A stretch of DNA of 64,000 nt from Acidimicrobiales bacterium (GTDB lineage: Bacteria; Actinomycetota; Acidimicrobiia; Acidimicrobiales; RAAP-2): NCBI GenBank assembly GCA_052148295.1, contig JBKQIP010000174.1, positions 16,256-80,255 of the forward strand, written 5' to 3'. Position numbers and translations under genes: made by a program. This document shows positions 11,362 to 26,889 of the stretch, in pieces (the first letter of the stretch is position 1; each line of letters opens with the position of its first letter). The notes under the pieces are model-generated. The model saw only the letters and a program-made list of their open reading frames with translations, did no database searches and had not been told where the DNA came from.

Positions 11362-12852
11362 GTGCCTTCCTCGAGCCGCATCGCAGACCCGCGCACCCCG
11401 GTGCTGGTGGGCGTGGGTACCGCCCAGGACAGCGCCCCCGTCGTCGAACTGATGACCGCGGCGTGCCGGTCGGCCGCGCTCGATGCCGCGGCCCCGGCCC
11501 TGCTGCCCGCCCTCGACCGCATCGTGGTCCCCCAGGGAAGTTGGGCCCTGCCCGACCCCGCCCGGGCGGTGGCGGCGCGCCTCGGTGCCCGGTCGGCACG
11601 CACCTACCTGGGCCAGGTCGGCGTGTCCCAGCAGGAGTTGATCGATGACGCCCTGGAGTCCATCGCCGCCGGTCGGGCCGACGTGGTCATGGTGGTCGGC
11701 GGCGAGGCGCGCGCCTTCGCGCGCCGCGGCGGCGACGAGTCCCTGGGCGCGGACGAGGGGGTGACCCCCGATGTGACGCTCACCCGCCCGGCCGACTTCA
11801 TCGCACCGATCGAGGTGGCCGCCGGCACGGTGTGGCCCGTGGTCCAGCAGTACGCGCTGATCGAGAACGCGCTGGCCGCCCACGAGCACCAAGATGCCGA
11901 CGCGCTGGCCCGCGACGTCTCCCGGCTGTGGGCCCGCTTCAACGAGGTGGCCCAGGGCAACGAGCTGGCCGCCTTCCCCGCTCCCCGCACCGCCGCGTCC
12001 ATCGCCACGCCCGGGCCCAAGAACCGGCCGCTGTCCCACCCCTACAACCTGTGGCATTCCAGCCAGTGGACCGTCGACCAGGCGGCCGCCCTCCTGCTCT
12101 GCTCGGCGGAGCGGGCCGGAGGGGCCGGGGTCCCGGCCGACCGCTACGCCTTCCCCCACGTGGCCCTGCACGCCTCCCACGCCATCACCCTCACGGCGCG
12201 CAAGGACCTGCACGCCTGGCCGGCCATGGCGGTGCTGGGTCGCCTCGCCGCCGGACATCTCCGCGCCCCCCTGGGCGAGCTGCCGCTGGCCGACGTCTAC
12301 TCCTGCTTCCCGTCCTCCGTGCGGGTGCAGCAGCGTGCCCTCGGCCTCGACCCCGAGGGGACGCCGACGGTGACCGGTGGCATGGCCTTCGCCGGCGGGC
12401 CGTTCAACAACTACGTCCTGCAGTCCACCGCCGCGCTCATCCGCCTGCTGCGCCACCGGCCGGCCGAGCGCGGGCTGGTCACCACCGTGTCGGGCATGCT
12501 GTCCAAGCCGGGACTGGCCGTATGGTCCTGCTCCCCGCCGCCCCCGGGCCGCGGGACCCTGATGGCCGATGTGGCCGACGACGCGGCCGCGGCCACCGAG
12601 ACGCTCCCCGTGGCCGCCCCCGAGGCCTCGCGGGGCCCGGCCACGGTGGCCTCGTACACCGTCACCTACGAGACCGGTGCCGACGGCGCCGGCGACCCCC
12701 CGCGCCCGCGGCGGACGGTGATCGTGGCCGACCTGGGCGACGGGAGGCGGACCGCCGCCGCCTGCGAGGATGAGTCCCTGGCCCGCCGCGCCCTGAGCGA
12801 GTCGCTCATCGGGCGGCCGGTCCACATCGACGGCGCCACCTTCACCCCATGA
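11362..12852 (+). CDS. Thiolase-fold protein (acetyl-CoA acetyltransferase-like) with a C-terminal OB-fold-like extension
   Basis: This is the real part of track ORF 10606..12852, from GTG 11362 (VPSSSRIADPRTPVLVGVGTAQ). Thiolase-like blocks are ADVVMVVGGEA and GGMAFAGGPFNNY. The tail GPATVASYTVTYE...RTVIVADLGDGRR resembles the OB part of DUF35 proteins. Confidence 0.6.
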   Translation: MPSSSRIADPRTPVLVGVGTAQDSAPVVELMTAACRSAALDAAAPALLPALDRIVVPQGSWALPDPARAVAARLGARSARTYLGQVGVSQQELIDDALESIAAGRADVVMVVGGEARAFARRGGDESLGADEGVTPDVTLTRPADFIAPIEVAAGTVWPVVQQYALIENALAAHEHQDADALARDVSRLWARFNEVAQGNELAAFPAPRTAASIATPGPKNRPLSHPYNLWHSSQWTVDQAAALLLCSAERAGGAGVPADRYAFPHVALHASHAITLTARKDLHAWPAMAVLGRLAAGHLRAPLGELPLADVYSCFPSSVRVQQRALGLDPEGTPTVTGGMAFAGGPFNNYVLQSTAALIRLLRHRPAERGLVTTVSGMLSKPGLAVWSCSPPPPGRGTLMADVADDAAAATETLPVAAPEASRGPATVASYTVTYETGADGAGDPPRPRRTVIVADLGDGRRTAAACEDESLARRALSESLIGRPVHIDGATFTP

Positions 12853-14558
12853 CCACCTCCCCGTCCACCCGCCTGCGCTCCCGCCCCCGGCTCGTCCCCC
12901 CCGAGCTGGCGGCCCGGGTACCCTCCCTGCGCGCCGCCGGCGCGGTCGCCCTCGTCCTCGGCGCCCTGACCGCCGCCGCCATCGTCGTCCAGGCCGTGGC
13001 CGTCGCCACCGCCGTGGACCGGTCGCTCCTCCACCACGCCTCGCTGCGCGACGTGCGTCCCCAGCTCGTCGCCATCGTCGTGGCCGTGGTGGCGCGCGGG
13101 GTCCTGCACTGGCTGGGGGAGGTGTCGGCCCAGCGGACGGCGGAGTCGGTGGCCCGCACCCTGCGCGGCCAGCTGCTGCGCCACACCCTCGACCTCGGCC
13201 CCGGTTGGCTGGCCGGCGAGCGGCCGGGGGAGCTCTCGCTCACCGCCACCAGGGGGCTCCGATCGCTGCACACCTACTTCGCCCGCTACGTCCCCCAGGC
13301 CGCGACGGCCGCCGTCGTTCCCGTCCTGCTCCTCGTGTGGGTGGGCACCCAGAGCTGGCTGGCCCTGGTGGTGGTGCTGGCGCTGCTGGCCGCCGTGCCG
13401 GTGACCATGGTCCACTTCGGACGGGAGGCCACCCGCCGCACCGAGCGCCAGTGGCGTCGCCTCGGTTCCCTGGCCGGCCGCTTCCTCCAGCTCATCGAGG
13501 GCCTTCCCACCCTGCGCGCCTTCGGGCGAGAGGGCCACGGGCGCCGCGAGGTGGCGGCCTCCTCGGACGGCGTCCGCACCGCCACCATGCGGACGCTGCG
13601 CGTGGCCTTCCTCTCCGCGCTGGCCATGGACATGATCGCCGCGTTCGGCGTCGGCCTCATGGCCATGGTGCTGGGCCTGAAGCTGCTGTGGGGAGAGCTG
13701 AGCCTGCAGACCGCCATGGCCGTCCTGCTGGTCGCCCCGGAGATCTTCATGCCGCTGCGCCGGGCCGGCGCCGAGTTCCACGCCAGCGCGGAGGGACAGG
13801 CCGCGGCGGCACGCGTGCTGGACGTGCTCGCCGTGCCCTCGCCGCACGTCGCCGCCGGCGAGCCTGCGCCCCGTGGCGCCTCGCCCTCCCCGCAGGTCAC
13901 CCTGTCCATCGACCGGCTGGGCCTCGCCTATGACGATCGCGCCGTCCCGGCCCTGCACGAATTCTCGCTGCTGGTGCCCCCCGGTGATCGCGTCGCGCTG
14001 GTCGGTCCGTCGGGTGCGGGGAAGTCGTCGGTCGTGGCCGCCCTGCTCGGCTTCGTCCGGCCCACCTCCGGCAGCATGTCGGTCGACGGGATGCCGTCGA
14101 CGGCGTGGACCATCGCGGCCTGGCGTGCCCACTTCTCCGCCCTGCCGCAACGGCCCCACCTCTTCACGGCGTCGCTGGCGGAGAACCTGCGCCTGGGGGC
14201 ACCCGAGGCCACGGACCAGGACCTGCACGAGGTCCTCGGCGCCGTCGGGCTGCGGGCGCTGGTGAGCCACCTCCCCCGGGGCCTTGACACCGCTCTGGGT
14301 CAGGACGGGTTGACGCTGAGCGCGGGCGAGCGCCAGCGGGTGGCCCTGGCCCGCGCCCTGCTGCGCCCCGCCCCGGTGCTCCTGCTCGATGAGCCCACGG
14401 CCTCGCTCGACCCGGCGACCGCGTCGGCTCTGGCCACGGCGATCGAGCCGTACCTGGTCGGCCGCAGCGTGGTCGTGGTCGGCCACGAGCCGGTGCTCCT
14501 CCCCCACTTCGACGCCGTGGTGCAGCTCGGCGCCCGCCCGACCCTGGCGGTGTCGTGA
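12849..14558 (+). CDS. cydD: ABC exporter, fused permease/ATPase, CydD-like (thiol reductant exporter)
   Basis: Six-helix TMD followed by an NBD with Walker A GPSGAGKSS, signature LSAGERQRVALARAL and Walker B LLLDEPT. It pairs with the next gene by a 4-nt overlap, as in cydDC. No cydAB is adjacent, so the symbol is tentative. Confidence 0.6.
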   Translation: MTTSPSTRLRSRPRLVPPELAARVPSLRAAGAVALVLGALTAAAIVVQAVAVATAVDRSLLHHASLRDVRPQLVAIVVAVVARGVLHWLGEVSAQRTAESVARTLRGQLLRHTLDLGPGWLAGERPGELSLTATRGLRSLHTYFARYVPQAATAAVVPVLLLVWVGTQSWLALVVVLALLAAVPVTMVHFGREATRRTERQWRRLGSLAGRFLQLIEGLPTLRAFGREGHGRREVAASSDGVRTATMRTLRVAFLSALAMDMIAAFGVGLMAMVLGLKLLWGELSLQTAMAVLLVAPEIFMPLRRAGAEFHASAEGQAAAARVLDVLAVPSPHVAAGEPAPRGASPSPQVTLSIDRLGLAYDDRAVPALHEFSLLVPPGDRVALVGPSGAGKSSVVAALLGFVRPTSGSMSVDGMPSTAWTIAAWRAHFSALPQRPHLFTASLAENLRLGAPEATDQDLHEVLGAVGLRALVSHLPRGLDTALGQDGLTLSAGERQRVALARALLRPAPVLLLDEPTASLDPATASALATAIEPYLVGRSVVVVGHEPVLLPHFDAVVQLGARPTLAVS

Positions 14559-16204
14559 GGCCCCTGCGCCGGATATGGCGCGAGCCGGGAACGCCGTACG
14601 GGCGCCTGGCCCTGGCCGGCGCGCTCGGGCTCCTCTCGGCGGCGGCCACCATCGCCCTCATGGCCGGGTCGGGCTACGTCCTGGGTCGGGCCGCCCAGCG
14701 CCCGGGACTGGACGCGCTGGTCGGGATACTGGCGGCGGTCGAGGTGGTGGCCTTCCTGCGCGGACCCCTGCGCTACGCCGAGCGCCTGGTGGGCCACGAC
14801 GCCGCCCTGCGGGCCCTGGCCGGGTGGCGCATCTGGCTCTACGACTGCCTGACGCCACGCGTGCCCGCTGCCCTGGCCGGCTGGCGCAGCGGCGACCTCT
14901 TGACCCGCGCCATCGACGACGTCGACACCCTGCAGGACCTCTACCTCCGCACCGTGCTGCCCCTCGGTGTGGCCCTGGGTGCCGCCCTGCTGGGTCTGGT
15001 CGTGGTCGGCCTCATCCTGCCCGTGGCCGTCCTCGCCCTGGGCGTCCCACTGCTGATCGCCTGCACCGTGCCACCGGCCCTGGTCTGGCGGCCCGGTGCC
15101 GACGACGAGGAGTCGGCCCTGGCGGGGGAGATCTCGGCGCACGTGGTCGACATGATCCACGGGGCGGCCGACCTCCTGGCCTTCGGCGCCGAAGATTCCG
15201 CCTTCGGCCGGCTGGACGAGATGAGCCGGCGGTCCGAGGCCCTGGCGCGCCGCCAGCACCGGTCGGCCGCGCTGGCCGCCTTCACGACGCAACTGTGCGT
15301 GGGCGCGGCGCTGACCGCGGTCCTGGCCGTCGCCGTGTCCGCCGTGCACGCGCACCACCTCGACCCGGTCATGGTGGCCGTCCTGCCCCTGGCCGCCCTG
15401 GCCACGTTCGAGCCGGTCCCCGGCGTGACCCAGGGCACGGCCCGCGCCCTGGCGGTCCGCGCCGCCGCCCGCCGCCTCCTGGCCCTCGAGGCCGTGCCGG
15501 TCCCGATCGGCGACCCCGGCGTCCCCCGCTCGCTCCCCGAGGGCACGCCGGACGTCTCCTTCGCGCGGGCGTCGTTGCGCTACGGGCCCGGGCTGCCCCG
15601 GGCGCTCGACCGGGTCGACCTGCACCTGGCCCCGGGAGGACGGGTGGCCGTGACCGGCTCCAGTGGCGCCGGCAAATCCTCCCTGGTCAACGCCCTCCTT
15701 CGCTTCTGGCCGCTGGAGGGCGGCACGTTGCAGCTGGGCCACGTGGCGACCGACGAGCTGACGCAGGCCGAGGTGCGGGCCGCCTGCGCCCTAGTCGACC
15801 AGCGCGCCCAGTTGTTCGCCGGCACGCTGCGGTCCAACCTGACCCTGGGACGCCCCGACGCCACCGATGAGGAGATCGGCAGGGCCCTCGACGCCGCCCA
15901 GCTCAGCGGCTGGGTGGCCGGGCTCCCGGCCGGCTTGGAGACGCCCGTCGGTGATGAGGGCGTCGCCCTCTCCGGAGGCGAGCGCAGGAGGGTGACCGTG
16001 GCCCGAGCGCTCCTGGCCGGCGGCCGGGTGCTCGTGCTCGACGAGCCGACCTCCGGACTCGACGACGAGGTGGCCGACCGGCTCATCGGCGACGTCTTCC
16101 GCGCCGCGGGCGATCACAGCGTCCTCCTGATCACCCACCGGCCCGCGGAGGCCGACCGCTGCCAGACCACCGTCACCCTCGAGGCGGGCCGCGCCGTTCC
16201 CTGA
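14555..16204 (+). CDS. cydC: ABC exporter, fused permease/ATPase, CydC-like
   Basis: TMD plus NBD with Walker A GSSGAGKSS, signature LSGGERRRVTVARAL and Walker B LVLDEPT. The GTGA overlap with the previous gene fits a heterodimeric exporter. Confidence 0.6.
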   Translation: MRPLRRIWREPGTPYGRLALAGALGLLSAAATIALMAGSGYVLGRAAQRPGLDALVGILAAVEVVAFLRGPLRYAERLVGHDAALRALAGWRIWLYDCLTPRVPAALAGWRSGDLLTRAIDDVDTLQDLYLRTVLPLGVALGAALLGLVVVGLILPVAVLALGVPLLIACTVPPALVWRPGADDEESALAGEISAHVVDMIHGAADLLAFGAEDSAFGRLDEMSRRSEALARRQHRSAALAAFTTQLCVGAALTAVLAVAVSAVHAHHLDPVMVAVLPLAALATFEPVPGVTQGTARALAVRAAARRLLALEAVPVPIGDPGVPRSLPEGTPDVSFARASLRYGPGLPRALDRVDLHLAPGGRVAVTGSSGAGKSSLVNALLRFWPLEGGTLQLGHVATDELTQAEVRAACALVDQRAQLFAGTLRSNLTLGRPDATDEEIGRALDAAQLSGWVAGLPAGLETPVGDEGVALSGGERRRVTVARALLAGGRVLVLDEPTSGLDDEVADRLIGDVFRAAGDHSVLLITHRPAEADRCQTTVTLEAGRAVP

Positions 16205-16321: not shown

Positions 16322-16434
16322 CCACCCTCCGGCCCCGTCGGCGGAGACCCGGCACCCGAAATGCCTGCATGGGGGCTGTCCGGCCAGCGACGAGATACCC
16401 GGGTGTGACCTGCCCTTACCGAGCGCTTACCGTG

Positions 16435-17907
16435 ATGGCGCACAGTGAGCGGCGTGAGAGACTGCGCAGCAACCGGCGTCGGGCGAAGGAGGACAACGTG
16501 CCCGGTTCGGGTCCAGTGCCCACCGGGTACGGAAGCGTCGCAGTCGCGGCCGACCGTCGGGGAAGAAGGGTTGACTCGGAAGCGGGGGACGCGCCGGTGA
16601 TGGTGACGACGGAAACCGTGAGCGCCGTGCGGACGCTGCCCGTCCCCCCTGGCTCGCGCCCCCGCTCCACGCCGGTGCGCCTCCGCGTCTTCGCCGTGGC
16701 GTTGGTCCTCCTGGTCGTGCTGGCCGGACTGGTGGCCGGCCTGGCCACGTCCAACCGACAGAGTGCGACCACGGCGGCGGCCCAACAGGCGGAGCCGCTG
16801 CTGGTCTCGGCGCAGACCATCAACACGTCACTCTCCGACGCCGACAGCACGGCCGCCGCCTCGTTCCTGCGGGGCCGGCTCGAACCGGCGGCGCTTCGTG
16901 ACCGCTACGCCGCCGACGTGGATCAGGCCTCGACCGCACTGGCCACGGCCGCTCAGGAGGCAGGTACGGATCCCGCGGTCACGTCGTCATTGGCCGCTGT
17001 GTCGACCGAGGTGCCCGTCTACACCGGGCTGGTGCAGACGGCCCTCTTCAACGAGCGTCAGGCCTACTACCCGCTGGCCGCCTCCTACCTCGGCGAGGCC
17101 AACAACCTGATGCGCACCCGGATCCTGCCCGCCGCCACCCAGCTCTATGCCACCGAGCGCGCCCGTCTCGCCGCCGACGAGGGGAACGCGGTCAACCCGT
17201 GGCTGGCCGCCGCGGCGGGGCTCAGCGTGGCCGTCCTGCTGGTGCTGCTCGTAGGGGCCCAGTGGTGGATGAGCCGCCACTTCCGCCGGACGCTCAACGT
17301 TCCGCTGGTGACGGCCACCGTGCTCATCGCCGCCCTCGGTCTGTGGTTCGCCATCGCCCTGGTGGCCCAGGGCTCCGGCGTGACCACGGCCACGAGCCGG
17401 GGGTCGGGCCCCATCGACACCTACACGCAGGCCCGCATCCTCGCCCTCGAGATGCGGGCGGACGACGAGCTGACCCTGCTCACCCTGGACTCGGTGCCCA
17501 CGTACCAGCAGGACTACACCGCCGCCGCCGACCGCCTCGAGGCCCTGTTGGCCTCGTCGGGCGCGGTCGCAGGCGCCGAGCGGCCGCAGGCGGCGCACGC
17601 CCGCGCCGCCTTCGCCGCCTACACCAGAGTGCACCACCACATCCGCAGCCTGGACAGCGGGGGCAATCTGGACGGGGCCGACGCCGTGGCCTCCGGGCCG
17701 GCCGCGACGGATCTCCCGGCGGTGTCGTCGGATCTGGACACGGTGCTCACCGATGACATCTCCGGATCCCAGGGGACCTTCCACAGTGCGATGGCGGCGG
17801 CCACCGGAGATCTCGACGGCGTCCTCGTGGCCATCGCCCTGCTGGCGCTGATCTCGGCCGTGCTCGTCCTCGTCGGCTTCCAGTCCCGGATCGCGGAGTA
17901 CAGGTAG
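16435..17907 (+). CDS. glnX: GlnX-like integral membrane protein (4 TM helices with two long extracytoplasmic helical regions)
   Basis: Track ORF 16369..17907. TM segments are VFAVALVLLVVLAGLVAGLA, WLAAAAGLSVAVLLVLLVGAQWW, LVTATVLIAALGLWFAIALVA and LVAIALLALISAVLVLVGF. Its position directly upstream of glnH-pknG matches the known glnX-glnH-pknG arrangement. The start is uncertain (16369, 16435 or later). Confidence 0.7.
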   Translation: MAHSERRERLRSNRRRAKEDNVPGSGPVPTGYGSVAVAADRRGRRVDSEAGDAPVMVTTETVSAVRTLPVPPGSRPRSTPVRLRVFAVALVLLVVLAGLVAGLATSNRQSATTAAAQQAEPLLVSAQTINTSLSDADSTAAASFLRGRLEPAALRDRYAADVDQASTALATAAQEAGTDPAVTSSLAAVSTEVPVYTGLVQTALFNERQAYYPLAASYLGEANNLMRTRILPAATQLYATERARLAADEGNAVNPWLAAAAGLSVAVLLVLLVGAQWWMSRHFRRTLNVPLVTATVLIAALGLWFAIALVAQGSGVTTATSRGSGPIDTYTQARILALEMRADDELTLLTLDSVPTYQQDYTAAADRLEALLASSGAVAGAERPQAAHARAAFAAYTRVHHHIRSLDSGGNLDGADAVASGPAATDLPAVSSDLDTVLTDDISGSQGTFHSAMAAATGDLDGVLVAIALLALISAVLVLVGFQSRIAEYR

Positions 17908-17911
17908 GACC

Positions 17912-18925
17912 ATGCGACACCGTCACCCGACACCCCGGCGGCTCTCGCCCAGGACGATCACCGTCGTGCTGATCGGCACCGCGCTGGGCCTGGCCGGCTG
18001 CGGTACCGCTCCCGACGCGTCACGCCTCCCTCCGGCGGCGGTGCGGATGGCACCGCTCCTGCCCGCCTTTGCCGAGATCGTCCACCCCTCACCGCCCCCA
18101 CCGGCTCCGCCAGGTTGCACCGACCCGACGGCGAGCTCTGCACCTCCGGCCACCATGCCCGCCCCGGGCGACATGCCGGCCGGAAGCTGGATGTCCCACA
18201 TCCTCGCCCGGGGTTACCTGATCGTCGGGACCGGCCAGTCCACCTACGACTGGGGCTACCGGGACCCGGTCACGGGCCAGCTGAGCGGGTTCGACATCGA
18301 CATGCTGCGCCAGGTCAGCCAGGCGATCTTCGGCTCGCCGGACCGGATCCGCTTCGTGGTCGTCAACAACGACCAGCGGGTCCAGGCGGTACGGTCGGGC
18401 CAGGTCGACATCCTGGCCGAGACCATGACCATCAACTGCGCGCGTGAGAAGTACGTCGACTTCTCGACGGTCTACTTCGAGGCCGGTCAGGAGATCCTGG
18501 TGCCGACCGACTCGACCATCAGCGGCCCGTCCGACCTCAACGGAAAGCGCGTGTGCGCCACCTTCGGATCGACCTCCCTGCAGAACCTGGTCAAGGTGGC
18601 ACCCCGAGCCATTCTCTGGGCGGTTCAGAACGAGACCGACTGCCTTGTGATGCTCCAGCAGGGCCAGGTCGATGCCATCAGCACCGACAACGCGATCCTG
18701 CAGGGGCTGGCCGCCCAGGATCCCAACACCAAGATCGTGGGACCGCCCTTCACCTCCGAGCCCTACGGCATGGCCATCAGCAAGGCCCACCCCGAATTCA
18801 CGTCGTTCGTGAACGGCGTGTTGGCCCAAGAGCGGGCCGACGGCACCTGGGCCGCCATCTACGAGAAATGGCTGGGTCCCAACCCGCCGGCTCCGCCGGT
18901 GGCCACCTACACGGAGGCACCATGA
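17912..18925 (+). CDS. glnH: GlnH-like periplasmic amino-acid (Asp/Glu/Gln)-binding lipoprotein, SBP family 3
   Basis: Lipobox LGLAGCG. Blocks YDWGYRDPVTGQLSGFDIDMLR, ETMTINCAREKYVDFSTVYFEAGQ, GKRVCATFGSTS and DAISTDNAILQGLAAQDP closely resemble mycobacterial GlnH as I remember it. Confidence 0.85.
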   Translation: MRHRHPTPRRLSPRTITVVLIGTALGLAGCGTAPDASRLPPAAVRMAPLLPAFAEIVHPSPPPPAPPGCTDPTASSAPPATMPAPGDMPAGSWMSHILARGYLIVGTGQSTYDWGYRDPVTGQLSGFDIDMLRQVSQAIFGSPDRIRFVVVNNDQRVQAVRSGQVDILAETMTINCAREKYVDFSTVYFEAGQEILVPTDSTISGPSDLNGKRVCATFGSTSLQNLVKVAPRAILWAVQNETDCLVMLQQGQVDAISTDNAILQGLAAQDPNTKIVGPPFTSEPYGMAISKAHPEFTSFVNGVLAQERADGTWAAIYEKWLGPNPPAPPVATYTEAP

Positions 18926-20130
18926 GCACCCCGTCGCTCGACGCCATCGACCGGCGCCTCGCGAAGGTGGACACGATCGTGCAGCACATGGGGGAGAACC
19001 TGGTCGAACTCGACGCCGACGTCACCCGCCAGATGCTCGGAGCCTCCCCGAGCCTCACGGGACGGACAGCCGAGGCCTGGCGGCTGGCCGACGCGCAGCT
19101 GGCCGATCTCTGGCGCGGCCACGTCGCGCTGAAGGATCTCCTCGAGGCGATCGCCCATGAGCGCGGCACCAGGTCGTCCGTCCCCAGGGCCGCCCTCGGT
19201 CGCGTGGCCGCCCTGCTGGACGGGCCGTCGGTCTCACTGCCCAGCCCCGACCCGACCGGGCACCGCACCCTGACCGAGGGGGCGGACCCAACGGTCCCGT
19301 GCACGATCGACGAGCTGATCGACCAGATGTCCGCCGGCTACGACTCGGTGGTGGCGCTGGTCACGGCCGTGGGGTCGGTCTGGACCGAGACGGTGCCGGA
19401 GCTCACGGCGCTCGAGGCGCAGGTCGACCGGCTCGAGGCCACGGTCCGCGAGACCGGGTGCCGCCCGCCGAACGACCTGGCCGCCGCCCGGCGGGCCCTG
19501 GCGGAGGCCCAGGCGACGGCCCGCCATGACCCTCTCTCCCTCCCCGCCGGACTCGCACCGTCCATCACCGTCACGGTGGACCGGGCCACGGCATCGATCC
19601 GGGACGCCGCCGCGGCGAACCGGCAGCTGGCCGCCGAGAGAGCCGATCTCTCCTCGGCGCTCGACGACGGCGATGCCCGCCTGCGCCGTGCCCGCGCCGA
19701 ATGTCGGGCCATCGTCGAGAGGATCGTGCTGCCCCACACGGTCTGGGAGGATCTCGACCGGGCCGAAGCCGAGCTCGTCGGGCTGCACGCCGAGTTCGCC
19801 GCCCTGACCGCAACCGCCGGCGACGGGGCGGCGGCGCGTCGGTCGGTGGCCGCGCTGGCGCGGCGCACCGACCGCCTCAGTCGACACCTGGCGCGGCTCG
19901 AGGATTGTGGCGCCACCGACCTGGCCAAGCGCGACGAGCTGCGGGGCCGTCTCGACGCCTACCGGGCCAAGGCTCGGGCCATCGGCCTGGGTGAGGACAT
20001 CGAGCTCGACCGTCGCCAACGCGAGGCCGACGAGCTCCTCTACAGCGCACCGTGCGACGTTCGGCGGGCCGAGGATCTCGTATCCCAGTTCGAGCGCGCC
20101 GTCCGGGCCGGTGACGAGGGGGCGCGGTGA
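18922..20130 (+). CDS. Hypothetical all-helical (coiled-coil-like) cytoplasmic protein, 402 aa
   Basis: This is the in-frame part of track ORF 18553..20130, from ATG 18922. ATGA overlaps the glnH stop and GTGA overlaps the pknG start. It is Ala/Leu/Arg/Glu/Asp-rich with heptad-like stretches (LTALEAQVDRLEATVRE, ELRGRLDAYRAKARAIGL). No TM segment or recognisable enzymatic motif is present. Confidence 0.7.
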   Translation: MSTPSLDAIDRRLAKVDTIVQHMGENLVELDADVTRQMLGASPSLTGRTAEAWRLADAQLADLWRGHVALKDLLEAIAHERGTRSSVPRAALGRVAALLDGPSVSLPSPDPTGHRTLTEGADPTVPCTIDELIDQMSAGYDSVVALVTAVGSVWTETVPELTALEAQVDRLEATVRETGCRPPNDLAAARRALAEAQATARHDPLSLPAGLAPSITVTVDRATASIRDAAAANRQLAAERADLSSALDDGDARLRRARAECRAIVERIVLPHTVWEDLDRAEAELVGLHAEFAALTATAGDGAAARRSVAALARRTDRLSRHLARLEDCGATDLAKRDELRGRLDAYRAKARAIGLGEDIELDRRQREADELLYSAPCDVRRAEDLVSQFERAVRAGDEGAR

Positions 20131-22517
20131 CGGCGACCTGCGAGCGACCCGCGTGCACCGGTCAGATGGTGGACGGGTACTGCGACGTCTGCGGCCTGGC
20201 CCCCGCGGATCCCTCTCGGCGTACGACGGGGCTGGGCCGACCGCCGTCGCCGGTGACCAGGGGCAGCGACCCCCAGCCGTGCGGCCGACCCGGATGCGAC
20301 GGGAAGATCGAGGACGGGTACTGCGATGTCTGCGGCCTGGCCCCTTCGGGTCCGTCCTCGCGCACGGCGGGGCTGGGCGCGGGGCCGACCGCGGGGACCA
20401 GCGGCTCCGCCTCGTCCCTGGGCACGGCGACCTTCCGGTCGGGTACCGGCACGGCCACGGGGCAGCACACCGGTGCCGGCTCGCGCCGCGACCGGGGCCA
20501 CCTCGGTGCCGGTCTCGTCGAGATACCCGCCGTCCCCTCCCGCGACCCGCTGTCCGTGGTGCTGGCCGACCCCGAGGTCCCCGAGCGCAAGCGCACCTGC
20601 GCCCGCTGCGGGCATCCGGTCGGGCGGAACCACGAGGGTCGGCTCGCCCGCACCGAGGGCTTCTGCCCGCACTGCGGTGCGGCCTACTCGTTCACGCCCA
20701 AGCTCAGGCCCGGCGACGTCGTGGGCGGCCAGTACCAGGTGACGGGATGCATCGCCCATGGCGGCCTGGGCTGGATCTACCTGGCCCAAGACTTGAATCT
20801 GGACGGCAAGTGGGTGGTGCTCAAGGGCCTGCTCGACTCCAACGACGAGTCGGCGAAGGCGGCGGCGATCGCCGAACGCCGCTTCTTGATCGAGGTCGAT
20901 CATCCCGACATCGTCAAGATCTACAACTTCGTCCAGCACGAGGACGCCGGCTACATCGTGATGGAGTACGTCGGCGGGGCATCCCTGCGGGAGGTGCGCA
21001 ACCGTTGCCGGGACGAGACCGGCGCTCCCCTGCCGGTGGCGCAGGCCATTGCCTACGCGCTCGAGATCCTTCCCGCCTTCGGATATCTGCACCGCCGCGG
21101 GTTGCTCTATTGCGACTTCAAGCCGGACAACGTGATCCAGACCCACGAGCAACTCAAGCTCATCGACCTGGGGGGCGTCCGCGCCATCGGCGACGAGGAC
21201 AGCGATCTCTACGGCACCGTCGGCTACCAGGCACCCGAGGTACCCGAGGACGGGGCATCGATCTCGTCCGACCTCTACACCGTGGCCCGGACCCTGGCGG
21301 TGCTCAGCCTCGATCTCCCCGGCTTCCAGGACGAGAAGCGCTTCGCCACCAGCCTGCCACCGGCGCGTGAGGTCCCCCTGTTCGGCCGCTACGAGTCGTT
21401 TCACCGGTTCCTCAAGAAGGCCACTGCCGCCGATCCGGCCGCCCGCTTCCAGACGGCGGCCGAGATGGCCGACCAGCTGCTCGGCGTGCTGCGGGAGGTC
21501 GTCGCCCTCGACGGCGGCCAGCCGGCGCCCGCGCCGAGCGCCCACTTCAGCGCCGAACTCGGCCCGGCCACCGACGCCGGCGCCTGGCCGGACCTGCCCG
21601 TTCCCTCCGTCGACCCCTTCGACCCGGCCGCCGGGCTGTTGGCCACAGCGGCGCTCTCCAGCCCTGACCAGGTCCGGTCCATCCTCGAATCGGCTCCCCC
21701 CTCGCCAGAGCTGGCCTACCACTTGGCCCGCTCCCTCATCGAGGAGGGGGACTTCGCCGGGGCCGAGCGCCAGCTCGAGACGCCCGAAGCCGGCATGTCC
21801 GCCTGGCGCGTGGCCTGGTGGCGGGGTGTGCTGCACCTGGCCGCCGACCGACCCCGCGTGGCCCAGACCTTCTTTGCCGTGGTGGCGGGCGAGCTCCCGG
21901 GGGAACTGGCGCCGAAGCTGGCCCTGGCGCTCGCTCTCGAGAACGCGGCGGACCGCTCCGGTTCGTCGCCCCCCGGCGGGAGCACGGTCCCCACCGGTGC
22001 CGACGACGTGGACGAGGCGGCCCGCCTCTACGACCTCGTCGCCGCCACCGACCCGGGGTTCGCCAGCGCGAGCTTCGGACTGTGCCGGGTGCGGCTGTCC
22101 CGCCGGGACCGCGACGGCGCGGCGGCGGCACTGGCGCGCATCGCCGCCTCCTCCGGGGCCCACCAGGCGGCGCAGACCGCCCTGTGCCGCCTGCGCTGTG
22201 CGGATATGGGCGGCGTGCCGCCGGGCCTGAGCGACCTCGCCTCGGCCGCCGCGGTCCTCGAGCACCTGAAGGTCGAGCCCTCGCTGCGCCTCCCATTGCT
22301 GCGCGATCTGCTGGGTCAGGCCCTCCGTGTGCTCACCGATGGGCGGGCCGCCCCGGACGAGCACACGGTTCTCGTCGGCACACCCTTCACCGAGGTCGAC
22401 GTCCGGGCGGCCCTCGAGCGGACGTACCGGTCGCTGGCCAAGCTGGCCGGGACCGACGGCGAGCGCTTCGAGCTGGTCGACCTGGCCAACGCCCATCGCC
22501 CGCGGACCCTGACATGA
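20127..22517 (+). CDS. pknG: Ser/Thr protein kinase PknG (two extra N-terminal Zn-ribbons, rubredoxin-like CxxCG pair, kinase domain, TPR domain)
   Basis: Rubredoxin motif: CARCGHPV...CPHCGAAYSF. Kinase blocks: GGQYQVTGCIAHGGLGWIYLAQD, VVLKGLL, AERRFLIEVDHPDIVKIYNF, GYIVMEYVGG, LLYCDFKPDNVI and LIDLGGV (the DLG variant typical of PknG). TPR block: WRVAWWRGVLHL...FPGELAPKLALALALE...ASASFGLCRVRL. Confidence 0.9.
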   Translation: MTATCERPACTGQMVDGYCDVCGLAPADPSRRTTGLGRPPSPVTRGSDPQPCGRPGCDGKIEDGYCDVCGLAPSGPSSRTAGLGAGPTAGTSGSASSLGTATFRSGTGTATGQHTGAGSRRDRGHLGAGLVEIPAVPSRDPLSVVLADPEVPERKRTCARCGHPVGRNHEGRLARTEGFCPHCGAAYSFTPKLRPGDVVGGQYQVTGCIAHGGLGWIYLAQDLNLDGKWVVLKGLLDSNDESAKAAAIAERRFLIEVDHPDIVKIYNFVQHEDAGYIVMEYVGGASLREVRNRCRDETGAPLPVAQAIAYALEILPAFGYLHRRGLLYCDFKPDNVIQTHEQLKLIDLGGVRAIGDEDSDLYGTVGYQAPEVPEDGASISSDLYTVARTLAVLSLDLPGFQDEKRFATSLPPAREVPLFGRYESFHRFLKKATAADPAARFQTAAEMADQLLGVLREVVALDGGQPAPAPSAHFSAELGPATDAGAWPDLPVPSVDPFDPAAGLLATAALSSPDQVRSILESAPPSPELAYHLARSLIEEGDFAGAERQLETPEAGMSAWRVAWWRGVLHLAADRPRVAQTFFAVVAGELPGELAPKLALALALENAADRSGSSPPGGSTVPTGADDVDEAARLYDLVAATDPGFASASFGLCRVRLSRRDRDGAAAALARIAASSGAHQAAQTALCRLRCADMGGVPPGLSDLASAAAVLEHLKVEPSLRLPLLRDLLGQALRVLTDGRAAPDEHTVLVGTPFTEVDVRAALERTYRSLAKLAGTDGERFELVDLANAHRPRTLT
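20171..20354 (+). repeat. Intragenic direct repeat: two 33-nt copies (20171-20203 and 20322-20354, 1 mismatch) encoding the duplicated DGYCDVCGLAP zinc-ribbon knuckle
   Basis: Read directly: ggacgggtactgcgaCgtctgcggcctggcccc versus ggacgggtactgcgaTgtctgcggcctggcccc, 151 nt apart. The two protein repeats are C-x4-C-x9-C-x2-C modules (CERPACTGQMVDGYCDVCG and CGRPGCDGKIEDGYCDVCG). Confidence 0.9.
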
Positions 22518-23506
22518 GCACGACCGAACCGGGCGGGGCGGAGATGGCGCAGGAGGACTGCGCCGGCTGCGGTGCGCCCATGTTCGAGCAGGAGCGCTTC
22601 TGTGAGGTCTGCGGGGCGCGGGTGGGTCCCGAGCCCGAGCCGGAGCCCGATCCCCCCCGGCCCACTGCGCCGATGCAGCGGGTGGAGCAGGACCTCGGCG
22701 TGGTGGCCGCCGTGTCGGACCGCGGCCGGCGTCGGCCGCGCAATGAGGACGCCATGGCCCTGGCCACCTTCGAGGGTCGCAGCGCGGTGGTGGTGTGCGA
22801 CGGGGTGGCGTCGACCGCCAATGCCCACGAGGCCTCCCGGGTCGCGGTGGAGATGGCGATCCGGGTGCTCGAGGCGGCGCTGCGCCACCCTCCGTCCGAC
22901 CCCGAAGCCTGGGACCGACTCTTCGTCGAGGCGTGCGCCGAAGCACAGATCGCGGTGGCCGACGTGGATGCCGAAGGGAGCGGCCTCGCGCCCTCGACGA
23001 CCCTCGTCGCCGTGATGGCCACGCCGGGCCTCATCGCGGTGGCCAACATCGGCGACAGCCGCGCCTACCTGCTCGACGGCACACCCGAGGGGGGACGATG
23101 CCTCACCGTCGACGACACCTGGGCCGAGGAGATGATCGCGGACGGAGATCCACCGGAGCTGGCGTACGCCGACCCCGACGCGCGCACGATCACCCGGTGG
23201 GTGGGGGCGGACGCGGCATCGGTGCGGCCCGCGGTGACCGTGAGCGCGGTCGACCGGCCCGGCGTGGTCGTCGTGTGCACCGACGGCCTGTGGGACTACT
23301 TCGACCGGCCGTCGGCCCTGGCCGCGCTGGCGGAAGAGCCGGCCGGCTCGGCGCCGCTGGCCCTCGCCCGGCGCCTGGTCGAAGCGGCGCTGGCGGCCGG
23401 CGGCCGGGACAACGTGACGGTCGCCGTGGTGCCGGTGGCACCGGCGGTTGCGGGCGCCACACCGGGATCCGCGGTACCGACCATCGAAACGACGAGCGAG
23501 GAGTGA
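22514..23506 (+). CDS. PP2C-family Ser/Thr phosphatase with N-terminal zinc ribbon
   Basis: ATG 22514 overlaps the pknG stop (ATGA). Zn ribbon: CAGCGAPMFEQERFCEVCGARV. PP2C motifs: RRRPRNEDA, VVCDGVAS, IGDSRAYL, CTDGLWD and GGRDNVTVAVV. Confidence 0.9.
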   Translation: MSTTEPGGAEMAQEDCAGCGAPMFEQERFCEVCGARVGPEPEPEPDPPRPTAPMQRVEQDLGVVAAVSDRGRRRPRNEDAMALATFEGRSAVVVCDGVASTANAHEASRVAVEMAIRVLEAALRHPPSDPEAWDRLFVEACAEAQIAVADVDAEGSGLAPSTTLVAVMATPGLIAVANIGDSRAYLLDGTPEGGRCLTVDDTWAEEMIADGDPPELAYADPDARTITRWVGADAASVRPAVTVSAVDRPGVVVVCTDGLWDYFDRPSALAALAEEPAGSAPLALARRLVEAALAAGGRDNVTVAVVPVAPAVAGATPGSAVPTIETTSEE

Positions 23507-23511
23507 GCACC

Positions 23512-24783
23512 ATGCCCGAGTTCCGCATCGAAGCGTTCCAGAACGAGTTCCTCCCCGATGGGGCCCGCGTGATGAACGCCGTGGTCACGGTGACCGCCGA
23601 GGGGACCGCCAACGGTGCCGGCGCGGCCGGGCCGGCGGCCGACCGGGCCGAGGTGATAGTGCTCGACACGTCCGGTTCGATGGATGGGAAGAAGCTCCGC
23701 GAGGCCAAGGCGGCCACGGCGGCTGCCATCGACTGCCTCCCCGACGGCGTCCGCTTCGCCATCGTCCAAGGCAATCACCAGGCGGACCTGGTGTACCCGA
23801 CCTCGGCACGGCTGGCCGTCTCCTCGCCCACCGCCCGCGACGCGGCGAAGAGGTCGACCAAGAAGCTCGCCGCCGGCGGTGGTACCGCGTTCGGAACCTG
23901 GATCCGCCTCACCGCCCAGCTCCTCGACGACGAGCCGGGCCTCCGACACGCCATCCTGCTCACCGACGGCAAGAACGAGAGCGAGGCCCCCGGAGGCCTC
24001 GAGGACGCGTTGGTCCAGGCCGAAGGGGTCTTCCAGTGCGACTGCCGGGGGGTGGGCAGTGACTGGCAGGTGGCCGATCTGCGCCAGATCGCCACCGCCC
24101 TCCTCGGGACCTACGACATCGTCGCCGATGCGTCCGGGCTCAGCGCGGACTTCGCCGCCATGATGCACGACGCCCTCAGCAAGGAGGTCGCCGAGGTCAC
24201 GCTGCGAGTCTGGGCGCCCCAGGGTGCCGCGGTGGAGCTGGTCAAGCAAATGGCACCGGTCATGATCGATCTGGCCCCGTTGCGCGCCGAGGCGGGGCCG
24301 TTGGTCGTCGACTACGCCACCGGCTCGTGGGGTGACGAGTCCCGCGACTACTACGTGAGTGTGCGGGTGCCCCCGGGGCAGGTCGGCGACGAGATGCTGG
24401 CGGCGCGGCTCACCCTCCTGGTCGGCGGTGAGCCAGCGGGACAGGCCCTCATCAGGGCCGTGTGGACCGACGACACCGCCAAATCGACCCAGATCAACGG
24501 GCGGGTGGCCGAGGCCATGGGCGAGAAGGAGCTGGCCGACGCCATACAGGGAGGGGTCGACGCCCTGCGTGACGGCGACACCGACACGGCGACGAGCCGC
24601 TTCGGCCTGGCCAGGCGACTGGCTGCCGGGACCGGGAACGACGACGCCCTGGCCCGCCTGGACGCGGTGGTGGTGGAGGCGGACCCGCTGACCGGTCGAG
24701 TGCGGCTCAAGGGAACGGTCGACGACATGGACGTGATGATCCTCGAGGCCAAGTCGACGCGCACGGTGCGGACACGCAAATGA
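23512..24783 (+). CDS. von Willebrand factor A (vWA) domain protein with an uncharacterised ~230-aa C-terminal region
   Basis: ATG 23512 lies 5 nt after the PP2C stop. MIDAS motifs are VLDTSGSMDG, AGGGTAFG and LLTDGKNE. The C-terminal half has no motif I recognise. Confidence 0.85.
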   Translation: MPEFRIEAFQNEFLPDGARVMNAVVTVTAEGTANGAGAAGPAADRAEVIVLDTSGSMDGKKLREAKAATAAAIDCLPDGVRFAIVQGNHQADLVYPTSARLAVSSPTARDAAKRSTKKLAAGGGTAFGTWIRLTAQLLDDEPGLRHAILLTDGKNESEAPGGLEDALVQAEGVFQCDCRGVGSDWQVADLRQIATALLGTYDIVADASGLSADFAAMMHDALSKEVAEVTLRVWAPQGAAVELVKQMAPVMIDLAPLRAEAGPLVVDYATGSWGDESRDYYVSVRVPPGQVGDEMLAARLTLLVGGEPAGQALIRAVWTDDTAKSTQINGRVAEAMGEKELADAIQGGVDALRDGDTDTATSRFGLARRLAAGTGNDDALARLDAVVVEADPLTGRVRLKGTVDDMDVMILEAKSTRTVRTRK

Positions 24784-26228
24784 GTGAGAAGAGCTCGAAC
24801 GGGTCCGCCGCCGCACCGCGTCCGGCGAGCGCGAGGACCCCGACGGCGACGGCGGAGCCGGAACCCTCGCGGCAGTGCCCGAACTGCGGGTCGTTCCCCG
24901 AGACGGAGGCGGCCTGCGTGGAGTGCGGCTACCGCTTCGACGCGCCGGACAGCGTCCCGGTGTGGGACGAGCAGCTCTGGGAGGTGGTGGTGCGCCCGGA
25001 CCGCCAGTACTACGAGATGATCGAGCCCGACGGTCTGGAGTTCCCCGAGGCGCCGCACAACCGGCGCGTCGCCCTCCTCGGCGACCATGTGCGCATCGGG
25101 CGGCGCAGCACGCGACGGGGCATCACCCCCGAGATCGACCTGTCGGGGACCCTCGAGGACGTGGGCGTGTCGCACCGCCATGCCGTGCTCATGCGCCAAC
25201 CCACCGGCGACTGGGCCCTGGTCGATCAGGACTCGGCGAACGGCACCTATCTCAACGCCGACCGGGACCCCATTACCCCCAACCACCGGGTGCCGCTGCG
25301 GGACGGTGACCAGATCCACGTCGGAGCCTGGACGACCCTGACCGTCGAGCGGGCCGAGGCCGGCGGGAGCAGATCGGCCGAGGTCAGCACCCCTTCGAAG
25401 GACACCCGCAACGTGGCCCGGAGCCGGCTGGACCTCGAGATCGGCCTGCTCGGGCCGCTCCAGGTCGCCGTGGCCGGGACGGTGACGAGCATCACCGCGC
25501 CCAAGGCCCGCGCCGTGCTGGCCCTGCTGGCCCTGCGCATCGGATCCGCCGTGACGACCGGGGACCTCGAGTGGGCCTTGTGGGGGGACGACGAACCGAG
25601 GACGGCGGACACGGCCCTGCGGGGCTACATCTCGGCGCTGCGGCACATCCTCCCGGCCGGGGCCATCGAGACCACACCGCAGGGCTATCGGTTCACCGGA
25701 CCGAAAGAGATCGTCGACATCCACCGTTTCGAGCGTCGGAGCGTGCGGGGTCGAGAGCTGCTCGCCTCGGGCCACCCCGGGTCCGCGGTGGCCGAAATCA
25801 CCCGGGCCCTCGACCTCTGGCGGGGGGACCCGATCCCCGACCTGGCCGACGGCCCGGCCGGCCTCAGCGAGGTGACCCGCCTGCGCGAGCGCAAGGCGGG
25901 CACCGAAGAGGACCTGTTCGAGGGCCGCCTGCAGCTGGGCGACCACCAGGGTGTCCTCCCCGACCTCAGCGTGGCCGTCGAGGCGGAGCCGCTGCGCGAG
26001 CGGAGGTGGAGACAGCTCATGCTCGCCCTCTACCGCGACAGCCGGCAGGCGGAAGCCCTGCAGGCCTTCCAGCGCTTCCGCGCCATCCTCGGCGAGGAGC
26101 ACGGGGTCGAGCCCTCGGCCGCGATCGGGGACCTGGAGCGGGACATCGTGCTGGACAAGCCCGAGCTGCGCTGGACCCCGCCCGGCACGGCCGGCACGGC
26201 CGGCGGGGCGCCGGCTACCTCGGGTTGA
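24780..26228 (+). CDS. Zn-ribbon + FHA + SARP/AfsR-type (winged-helix + BTAD) transcriptional regulator
   Basis: ATGA overlaps the vWA stop. Zn ribbon: CPNCGSFPETEAACVECGYRF. FHA: VRIGRR...GVSHRHAVL...DSANGTYLN...GDQIHVG. wHTH: IGLLGPLQVAV...ALLALLAL...TALRGYISALRHIL. BTAD: RERRWRQLMLALYRDSRQAEALQAFQRFRAILGEEHGVEPS. Confidence 0.85.
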   Translation: MSEKSSNGSAAAPRPASARTPTATAEPEPSRQCPNCGSFPETEAACVECGYRFDAPDSVPVWDEQLWEVVVRPDRQYYEMIEPDGLEFPEAPHNRRVALLGDHVRIGRRSTRRGITPEIDLSGTLEDVGVSHRHAVLMRQPTGDWALVDQDSANGTYLNADRDPITPNHRVPLRDGDQIHVGAWTTLTVERAEAGGSRSAEVSTPSKDTRNVARSRLDLEIGLLGPLQVAVAGTVTSITAPKARAVLALLALRIGSAVTTGDLEWALWGDDEPRTADTALRGYISALRHILPAGAIETTPQGYRFTGPKEIVDIHRFERRSVRGRELLASGHPGSAVAEITRALDLWRGDPIPDLADGPAGLSEVTRLRERKAGTEEDLFEGRLQLGDHQGVLPDLSVAVEAEPLRERRWRQLMLALYRDSRQAEALQAFQRFRAILGEEHGVEPSAAIGDLERDIVLDKPELRWTPPGTAGTAGGAPATSG

Positions 26229-26889
26229 CGGGTGGGGGCTCGGCGACCCCGGCCTGGCGCCGCCTGATCTCCACCACCGTCGGGGCCGGGTACTCGGTGT
26301 CGCCCGGACGCCAACCCGAGGCCACCTTCTGCATGCCGGCACCGCCCTCGGCCCAGACGTGGCAGGTGTTGGTCAGCCACTCCATGCCGCCCCCACCCAG
26401 GGTGTGCTCGCCGTCGCCGTGCTCCACCCGGTAGGCGCCGGACGAGGTGATGGCCTGGATGACCACCGGGCCCAGGGCGCGGGCCAGGAACTCGAGATGG
26501 CTGCAGCCCCGCTCCCGCCCGAAGCGGGACTGGACGGCGCTGGTGTAGCCGCGCGAGACGGACAGGCCCACCAGCTCGGCGAAGGAGTCCTCGATGGTCG
26601 GGCACTCCGCGTGGGGGAACGTGCCCATGGTGGCCCGGGCGTCGACGATGACCAGATCGGACCGTCGCACCACGATCCCCAGTTCCATCCCGTGCAGGTC
26701 CCGCGGGCCGAGCGCTCCACTGGCCCACGGGCGCTGATCGAGCAGCGTGCCGATGACCACGTGGTACCCGTCGCGCTCGAACACCTCCACCTGTATGACC
26801 CGGCGGTGCACCGGCGTGTCCTCCCCGCCCGCGGCCGGGCGCAGTTCGGCCAGGCGGGGCGACCGGTCGGGCCCGGTGAGATCAGTCAC
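26215..26889 (-). CDS. DUF2889-like protein
   Basis: Track ORF of 224 aa. The GRERGCSHLEFLARALGPVVIQAI block and the FPHAECP motif resemble DUF2889 as I recall it. It is convergent with the previous gene and overlaps it by 14 nt. Confidence 0.5.
   Translation of the reverse strand: MTDLTGPDRSPRLAELRPAAGGEDTPVHRRVIQVEVFERDGYHVVIGTLLDQRPWASGALGPRDLHGMELGIVVRRSDLVIVDARATMGTFPHAECPTIEDSFAELVGLSVSRGYTSAVQSRFGRERGCSHLEFLARALGPVVIQAITSSGAYRVEHGDGEHTLGGGGMEWLTNTCHVWAEGGAGMQKVASGWRPGDTEYPAPTVVEIRRRQAGVAEPPPVNPR

Follow-up and report, generated by a model that had tools for sequence, protein, structure and literature searches.

In Mycobacterium and Corynebacterium, GlnX, GlnH, and the Ser/Thr kinase PknG are encoded by a three-gene operon (PMC6069109, PMC8546545, PMC9769921). 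The same three proteins are encoded in the same order in an Acidimicrobiales genome, within the 64,000-nucleotide stretch of contig JBKQIP010000174.1 analyzed here (the window). In both operons, the kinase combines rubredoxin, kinase, and TPR domains, and an output through phosphothreonine and FHA domains is expected. However, glnH of the window is not directly before pknG; a 1,209-nucleotide gene for a protein of 402 residues (ORF402) lies between them, and three more signaling genes, encoding a PP2C phosphatase, a vWA protein, and an FHA protein, come after the kinase. In the canonical operon, in contrast, glnH abuts pknG, and no ORF402, PP2C, vWA, or FHA gene follows (control loci L095 and L096). 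The window kinase also differs from its canonical counterpart in having N-terminal zinc ribbons and a PknG_TPR match that lacks about the first 44 profile positions. The window GlnX passes the broad GlnX family NF058618 but scores only 159 bits with the mycobacterial equivalog NF041460, whose cut-off is 780. The ORF402 family is a conserved, unnamed component of a widespread non-mycobacterial PknG system, and the linkage of its gene to those of the kinase and the vWA, PP2C, and FHA proteins is strict.

Other signaling modules share parts of this arrangement. In the threonine phosphorylation pathway of the H1 type VI secretion system of Pseudomonas, the vWA-bearing kinase PpkA, the PP2C phosphatase PppA, and the FHA protein Fha1 constitute a reversible switch fed by periplasmic and membrane sensors. 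The window differs in having no secretion genes and in encoding its vWA as a separate cytoplasmic protein, and PpkA-PppA-Fha1 is not known to have an ORF402-like component. The downstream half of the window operon, with a kinase, a phosphatase, a vWA protein bearing the VWA_3_C domain, and an FHA protein, has the same cast as the archaeal network of ArnA (zinc-ribbon FHA) and ArnB (vWA) with the ArnC/D kinases and PP2A, in which the kinase-phosphorylated vWA protein is bound by the FHA protein with complex formation and oligomerization, and the phosphatase resets the system (PMC7472852). An ORF402-like helical protein is not described for the Arn network, and the window differs further by its PknG-type TPR kinase, its periplasmic sensor, and a PP2C in place of PP2A. 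According to Kaur et al. (2020, PMC7159879), actinobacterial neighborhoods of a zinc-ribbon kinase, a PP2C, and a standalone vWA protein recur, and vWA-centered "ternary" conflict systems attach effector domains such as peptidases via adaptor modules. As described there, ternary systems center on GAP1-N2 GTPases or MoxR ATPases, neither of which is seen around ORF402, and the searched passages of the paper mention neither PknG nor the ORF402 helical family. The papers on GlnH, GlnX, and PknG describe the three-gene operon and mention no intervening gene. No paper on the ORF402 family was found in the open-access literature, so an earlier description is possible; SCO1466-SCO1469 are represented there by a single passing mention, of SCO1468.

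Linkage of ORF402 to a PknG-type kinase

Gene order was compared over 10 kb on each side of the best 80 of at least 572 species loci, onto which the proteins of the window operon were mapped. The counts are restricted to the 61 loci with full flanks, in 5 of which (6 of the 80 overall) the kinase was detected by single-query tblastn. A PknG-type kinase gene lies directly downstream of ORF402 in 61 of 61 loci, so that conservation next to pknG in related genomes, the lack of which would have counted against the sequence-only reading of this DNA, is borne out, and the tie to pknG is tighter than could be seen from the sequence. The PP2C, vWA, and FHA genes are likewise downstream, each in 60 of 61. 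The sensor genes are more mobile: GlnX is encoded directly upstream in 48 loci and downstream of the FHA gene in 9, and GlnH directly upstream in 45 and downstream of the FHA gene in 11. In Actinomadura, Spirillospora, and Actinoallomurus, glnX-glnH are found downstream of the FHA gene and ORF402 still precedes the kinase; because it stays with the kinase under these circumstances, the kinase and not glnH is the gene to which ORF402 is linked. Gene calls made independently by NCBI, with precomputed Pfam assignments, give an identical seven-gene array in Nocardia inohanensis and in Catenuloplanes japonicus, which carries the weakest of the listed homologues, and in both arrays every gene has a family except ORF402. 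The gene order is also unchanged in the five other carriers in the window's own genus.

Variants of the array were recorded at individual loci. The sensor genes lie downstream of the FHA gene in L049, L055, L057, L060, L074, L075, L082, L083, L085, and L093. In L082 (Actinomadura spongiicola), the PP2C and FHA genes are missing, and ORF402, the kinase, and the vWA gene are kept. Some Streptosporangiaceae-type clusters are without glnH (L034, L037). One of these has, directly upstream of ORF402, a gene for a half-size GlnX-like protein of 216 residues whose match to the GlnX profile is confined to the C-terminal half of that profile (L034:9241-9891), and the other has, in the same place, a gene for 279 residues without a family (L037:8893-9732).

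The reading frame runs from ATG 18922 to TGA 20128-20130. Its start codon (18922-18924) overlaps the glnH stop TGA 18923-18925 as ATGA, and its stop codon overlaps the kinase start GTG 20127-20129 as GTGA. The sequence-only reading had placed a complete reading frame between glnH and pknG with overlaps at both ends, and these junctions are as it described; the flanking genes were also correctly named, with an SBP_bac_3 lipoprotein following a GlnX-family protein upstream and a PknG_rubred/Pkinase/PknG_TPR kinase downstream. An earlier start at GTG 18553 was ruled out, as homologues align from residues 1-9 of the product that begins at ATG 18922. Two proteins that resemble natural GlnH-ORF402 fusions (P0219 and P0137) have garbled junction sequences and were set aside as frameshifted or mis-called.

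Long spurious reading frames are frequent at 75% GC, which is about the GC content of the window, and a chance frame, or a hitchhiker unrelated to the kinase, was considered. The GC content at codon positions 1, 2, and 3 of ORF402 is 0.78, 0.54, and 0.90, the same as in the flanking genes, and this coding-frame signal switches precisely at both junctions; a codon-usage check, on which a non-coding frame might have been recognized, thus gave a coding-type third-position GC (GC3) of 0.90. The ratio of nonsynonymous to synonymous substitution rates (dN/dS) is 0.08-0.32 in 11 close ortholog pairs, which shows that the family is under purifying selection. Together with hundreds of full-length homologues of ~400 residues, the GC3 pattern and the dN/dS values mark ORF402 as more than a chance frame. 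With 1,077 homologous clusters and strict synteny over three classes in addition, a hitchhiker is effectively refuted and a spurious frame is excluded. ORF402 is a real gene.

The family is large and, with few exceptions, unannotated. A word-indexed search returned 122 full-length homologues of ~400 residues, all labeled "hypothetical protein". HMMER against 1.84 billion cluster representatives (50% identity) returned 1,077 matches with E ≤ 1e-3, of which 440 have E ≤ 1e-10; almost all cover the full span. The at least 572 loci came from a scan with one genome per species. More than 2,584 proteins, nearly all "hypothetical", were found at E ≤ 1e-40 when a Streptomyces member was used as the seed; the automatic DUF349 labels on a few of these are not reproduced by Pfam scans of the family.

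The range of the family covers Acidimicrobiia, Thermoleophilia, and Actinomycetes, and its presence follows that of a particular kinase type. Of 401 evenly sampled Actinomycetota genomes, 14 have true matches to ORF402 and 22 have PknG_TPR. All 14 carry PknG_TPR, with the match starting at profile position 28-46. The other eight PknG_TPR genomes, which belong to one family and are probably mycobacteria, have full-length matches (E ~1e-150), and ORF402 is found in none of them (0/8). In the two of these eight that were inspected (L095, L096), glnX-glnH-pknG are contiguous and no PP2C-, vWA-, or FHA-like gene comes after. In a set of 40 genomes closely related to that of the window, 5 have both ORF402 and PknG_TPR and 33 have neither, and the two mismatches lie at contig ends or in error-rich assemblies. 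Genome by genome, then, the co-occurrence with pknG envisaged in the sequence-only reading holds for the non-mycobacterial PknG_TPR kinases. In one genus with large genomes (5.5-12 Mb), all but one of 101 genomes have ORF402 (100 of 101), nearly always as one full-length copy; the named loci of the species scan indicate that this genus is Streptomyces, in which ORF402 would be close to a core gene.

In a maximum-likelihood tree of 80 members, orders are grouped with as few label changes as possible. This congruence with taxonomy points to an old family that was inherited mainly vertically in Acidimicrobiia, Thermoleophilia, and Actinomycetes. ORF402 had at first been regarded as an insertion into the canonical operon. 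That view does not stand, given the age and wide distribution of the seven-gene order and the agreement of the family tree with taxonomy; the three-gene mycobacterial/corynebacterial operon is more likely the reduced form.

Predicted fold and the portable C-terminal half

ORF402 is a protein of ~43 kDa with an isoelectric point of 5.2. It had been described from its sequence as rich in Ala, Leu, Arg, and Glu with long helices, as free of transmembrane segments and signal peptides, and as lacking any enzymatic or DNA-binding motif, all of which agrees with the present analysis: the composition is 18% A, 12% L, 12% R, 9% D, and 7% E, the maximum 19-residue Kyte-Doolittle hydropathy is 1.24, no membrane segment or signal peptide was found, as befits a cytoplasmic protein, and no enzymatic, DNA-binding, or other nucleic-acid-binding family was matched in the scans. 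Conservation was read from an alignment of 53 diverse members with the window protein as the reference row. Invariant positions are W64, D203-P204-L205, R337, R341, A346, K350, L373, and P377, and the N-terminal half has near-invariant L45, G47, T49, W53, and W64. Conservation reaches 95% over residues 341-350 and is 35-50% in the remaining protein. This peak lies within a 15-residue helical block, RxELRGRLDAYRAKA, after which the family has L-Y-x-A-P-C-D. The block is conserved on every helix face, which fits a buried protein-protein interface. The window protein has all features of the family, including the length of ~400 residues, W64, D203-P-L, RxELRGRLDAYRAKA, and APCD.

The AlphaFold2 model, built with the 53-sequence alignment, is confident and almost wholly helical (mean pLDDT 92.6, pTM 0.74). 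Its N-terminal part has four helices and a β-hairpin, the loop of which (residues 108-123) is the sole low-confidence stretch (pLDDT ~55). Long helices at 129-178, 211-265, and 302-353 follow, with shorter return helices. The predicted fold is a multi-helix bundle not tied to any characterized family, and the simple coiled coil that had been suggested is not what the model gives.

Searches for known relatives gave little. When ORF402 and the 53 aligned members were scanned against Pfam, NCBIfam, and PADLOC, only sub-threshold coiled-coil noise came up (DUF7603, E 0.012; ZorA, 0.099; DUF6237 in 5 members). A sequence-profile search of the PDB likewise gave coiled-coil noise, the best match being a dynein light chain over 74 residues (E 1e-4), and Foldseek of the model against PDB and BFVD found nothing with E < 0.01; the best BFVD match has E 0.019, and the viral structures are tape-measure noise. 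Homology to a chromosome-partition (SMC) or phage protein, which would have spoken for an unrelated family, was thus sought in the PDB profile and BFVD searches, which gave only low-complexity noise of the coiled-coil or tape-measure kind. BLASTP showed no homology to the helical bundles of GlnX. None of the PADLOC defense families matches ORF402, GlnX, or the vWA and FHA proteins; PADLOC gave only generic kinase-domain matches for the kinase and a weak match of the PP2C to PDC-M21C, a candidate-system model (E 4.9e-6).

The sole high-probability Foldseek match is the cytoplasmic domain of EzrA (PDB 4uxv; probability 0.97, E 0.18, TM-scores 0.39/0.31, 11% identity). EzrA and spectrin-like repeats share with ORF402 an elongated, all-helical, antiparallel-bundle architecture, and the model does contain helices of 50-55 residues in successive bundles. 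It is conceivable on these grounds that ORF402 is a cytoskeletal or membrane-proximal organizer of this kind, which localizes the module to the membrane, septum, or hyphal tip and does not regulate catalysis. However, this role is highly improbable. The resemblance is one of shape only, the E value is poor, no EzrA Pfam match was found among the 53 members, and internal repeats are only weakly indicated (hhalign probability of at most 39% for any pair of segments). Unlike EzrA, ORF402 has no transmembrane anchor and no link to cell-division genes, and it also lacks an amphipathic terminus.

The two halves of the protein have different distributions. In the genus-wide search, presumably of Streptomyces, a second, weaker class of matches covers positions ~202-397 of ORF402 only. 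These matches are proteins of 566-756 residues with an N-terminal Trypsin_2 peptidase domain, and ORF402 residues 226-399 are homologous to their C-terminus (hhalign probability 97.8%, E 8.5e-13). The trypsin-fused paralogues retain ELRGRL and APC(D/E), seen as APCE or PCDV, and have no counterpart of the N-terminal half. In 6 of 8 inspected loci, the gene for the trypsin-fused protein immediately precedes that for a second PknG-type kinase, which has zinc-ribbon, rubredoxin, kinase, and TPR parts and is followed by a vWA gene, and no glnX, glnH, PP2C, or FHA gene is near these second kinase and vWA pairs. This recurrence in paralogous clusters defines a minimal set of the C-half module, a PknG-type kinase, and a vWA protein. 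The C-terminal half is portable; the N-terminal half is specific to clusters with a GlnX-type sensor.

Members of the trypsin-fused triads include L099:8064-10019 (-), L100:6702-8402 (+), and L101:6024-8294 (+), as well as L102, L104, L105, and L106. A middle region of ~280 residues in these proteins has no family. They resemble the peptidase effectors that ternary systems carry on adaptor modules (PMC7159879), and the triad could be a protease under kinase control, perhaps one of a conflict or defense-type system.

The seven-gene array in the window

The array is a packed row of plus-strand genes from 16369 to 26228 (Table 1).

Table 1. Coordinates of ORF402, its sub-features, and the other genes of the array in the window.
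Feature	Coordinates	Strand	Description and basis
glnX-family gene	16369..17907	+	Four-transmembrane signal-transduction membrane protein; NCBIfam NF058618 transduce_GlnX, E 1.4e-104, 350 bits (cut-off 250)
glnH-like gene	17912..18925	+	Periplasmic amino-acid-binding lipoprotein; Pfam SBP_bac_3, E 5.7e-30; lipobox LAGC near N-terminus
Shine-Dalgarno GGAGG of ORF402	18913..18917	+	Inside glnH 3' end, 4 nt before ATG 18922; read from sequence
ORF402	18922..20130	+	Soluble, all-helical protein of 402 residues; translation, GC3, homologues, AlphaFold2 model
N-half, residues 1-205	18922..19536	+	Ends in invariant D203-P204-L205; 53-member alignment, AlphaFold2 secondary structure
C-half, portable module, residues 226-400	19597..20121	+	hhalign to C-terminus of trypsin-fused paralogues
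Invariant motif R337-x-E-L-R-G-R-L-D-A-Y-R-A-K-A351	19930..19974	+	Alignment of 53 members
A376-P377-C378-D379 motif	20047..20058	+	Loop between last two helices; P377 invariant, C378 98%, D379 94%
PknG-type Ser/Thr kinase	20127..22517	+	Pfam PknG_rubred 1.5e-29, Pkinase 1.8e-28, PknG_TPR 4.4e-55
Zinc-ribbon PP2C phosphatase	22514..23506	+	Pfam PP2C_2, E 4.9e-17; ATG overlaps pknG stop
ArnB-type vWA protein	23512..24783	+	Cytoplasmic; Pfam VWA_3 1.7e-13, VWA_3_C (PF18571) 1.3e-9
Zinc-ribbon FHA protein fused to SARP output	24780..26228	+	Pfam FHA 7.2e-12, Trans_reg_C 2.9e-6, BTAD 4.2e-38

The window kinase starts with two tandem CxxC...CxxC zinc ribbons (20127-20400) and matches PknG_TPR at profile positions 44-340 only. 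With many kinase orthologues, the alignment does not begin before residue ~45-52 or ~123, which suggests that the number of N-terminal zinc ribbons varies among lineages. Zinc ribbons also begin the PP2C and FHA proteins, and the PP2C of A. madurae has two. The GlnX-like genes of L107 and L108 are assigned to PF28326 "Sensor_actino" in precomputed Pfam hits; the window GlnX is without a Pfam match because PF28326 is not in the Pfam copy that was scanned.

The fusion of the FHA protein to SARP domains (Trans_reg_C and BTAD) is seen in the window and other Acidimicrobiaceae, while the proteins of Streptomyces, Actinomadura, Amycolatopsis, and others align over the FHA part only, so that the fusion to a transcriptional output is lineage-specific. 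Given the SARP DNA-binding domain, the output of the cluster in the Acidimicrobiaceae lineage is probably transcriptional. The Acidimicrobiaceae loci L015-L020 have a further vWA paralogue, with 41-43% identity to the vWA of the cluster, ~1.2-1.5 kb downstream of the FHA-SARP gene; the window has none. Directly upstream of glnX on the same strand, the window has two overlapping half-ABC exporter genes (12849-16204; ABC_membrane and ABC_tran, CydDC-like), and weak ABC matches are near the cluster in a few other loci, not consistently. Just past the operon, the other strand carries a gene for a DUF2889 protein (26215-26976, -).

Candidate partners and role of ORF402

The strict adjacency and co-inheritance, the helical stretch conserved on all faces, the absence of a catalytic signature, and the reuse of the C-half, joined to another N-terminal domain, beside paralogous kinases argue for a non-enzymatic subunit. 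It is proposed with moderate confidence that ORF402 is a scaffold or regulatory subunit that docks via its C-half on the kinase, the vWA protein, or both, and whose N-half may face GlnX. Physical binding, the identity of the partner, and the direction of regulation are inferred. The C-half (~226-400), with its RxELRGRLDAYRAKA helix and APCD loop, would dock on the PknG-type kinase, most likely on the TPR domain, and/or on the vWA protein. The N-half (1-205) is a candidate surface for receiving the GlnX signal or for positioning the PP2C and FHA partners. Translational coupling at both ends would match the amount of ORF402 to those of GlnH and the kinase.

Within the kinase, the TPR domain is favored because the family tracks the TPR-bearing PknG type and because the associated kinases miss the first ~44 PknG_TPR positions. 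ORF402-associated kinases match this profile from position ~28-46 on, while mycobacteria-type kinases match it from position 1. The C-T linker occupies the concave TPR face in mycobacterial and corynebacterial PknG structures (PMC8546545). As judged from the profile matches, the unmatched start probably corresponds to this linker, so that the segment between kinase and TPR would have diverged exactly where ORF402 is present.

Several points weigh against the scaffold proposal. Canonical PknG systems work without ORF402, which is thus dispensable for GlnX-to-PknG signaling in general. The trypsin-fused paralogue of L101 is beside a kinase remnant only, and the second kinase of L103 is without a trypsin-fused neighbor. 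Helical bundles can have other roles, such as membrane remodeling or chaperoning, that are invisible to gene order. Finally, gene linkage cannot decide whether the kinase or the vWA protein is the partner, as both always accompany the C-half.

The last point bears on a reading in which the vWA protein is the true partner. An invariant acidic residue of ORF402 (D203, E339, D345, or D379) would complete the metal ion-dependent adhesion site (MIDAS) of the ArnB-type vWA, and ORF402 would serve the vWA/FHA pair as a ligand or platform. MIDAS sites of vWA domains bind acidic side chains of partner proteins, and the window vWA carries the ArnB-type C-terminal domain. The vWA gene co-occurs with ORF402 as strictly as the kinase gene, and it is kept both in the A. 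spongiicola locus without PP2C and FHA genes and in the minimal paralogous triads. Nevertheless, this reading is fairly unlikely: the gene that ORF402 always adjoins, and often overlaps, is that of the kinase and not that of the vWA protein, the presence of the family tracks the TPR-bearing PknG type specifically, and sets of a zinc-ribbon kinase, a PP2C, and a vWA protein without TPR are described without such a protein (PMC7159879).

Although a kinase, a PP2C, and an FHA reader are encoded in the cluster, none of its products is evidently a dedicated substrate, and ORF402 itself could fill this position as a phospho-dependent docking platform that the kinase phosphorylates and whose phosphothreonine is bound by the FHA protein and reset by the PP2C. 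Candidate sites are T49, which is 94% conserved, and the flexible R-x-L-T-G loop at 108-123, the one low-confidence exposed stretch of the model, which holds a semi-conserved Thr; in the archaeal ArnA/ArnB pair, moreover, the vWA partner is a phospho-substrate read by the FHA protein (PMC7472852). However, the loop Thr is Leu in Actinoplanes members, the best-conserved region of ORF402 is without Ser or Thr, and the paralogous triads keep the C-half with neither an FHA nor a PP2C gene. By the ArnB analogy, the C-terminal region of the vWA protein and the Thr/Ser-rich linker of the kinase are likelier FHA targets. A substrate role for ORF402 is therefore improbable.

The sequence-only reading had also proposed a cytoplasmic adaptor between GlnX and the TPR domain of PknG. 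GlnX is disfavored as the main partner, because ORF402 stays by the kinase, the C-half recurs without glnX or glnH, and canonical GlnX-PknG signaling works without ORF402 (PMC8546545, PMC9769921). A refined form of the adaptor, with the C-half on the kinase or vWA protein and the N-half towards GlnX, is possible, and in this form the idea is partly supported.

A bolder extension of the scaffold proposal, which is held only tentatively, makes ORF402 the physical link of an ancestral PknG "signalosome" and a dedicated bacterial kinase scaffold, with the C-half in the concave TPR face and the N-half reading GlnX. The C-half would sit where the kinase's own C-T linker sits in mycobacterial PknG, and the helical body would gather the zinc-ribbon-tagged PP2C and FHA proteins plus the vWA protein. 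The logic is analogous to that of the eukaryotic kinase scaffolds KSR and Ste5. If this were true, the three-gene mycobacterial/corynebacterial operon would be a reduced derivative in which the function has been internalized, and the trypsin-fused paralogues would reuse the plug, thereby placing a protease under the control of a PknG-type kinase.

According to published models, an interaction between GlnX and PknG has not been demonstrated (PMC9769921). For the route by which a periplasmic amino-acid signal passes from GlnX to PknG, ORF402 is a testable candidate for a coupling or regulatory subunit. Every non-mycobacterial-type PknG kinase sampled is accompanied by ORF402 and the PP2C/vWA/FHA set, which suggests that the three-gene operon, although well studied, is not the usual form but an exception. 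As the sole gene of the seven-gene array without one, ORF402 represents a family that merits a name and a domain-database model.

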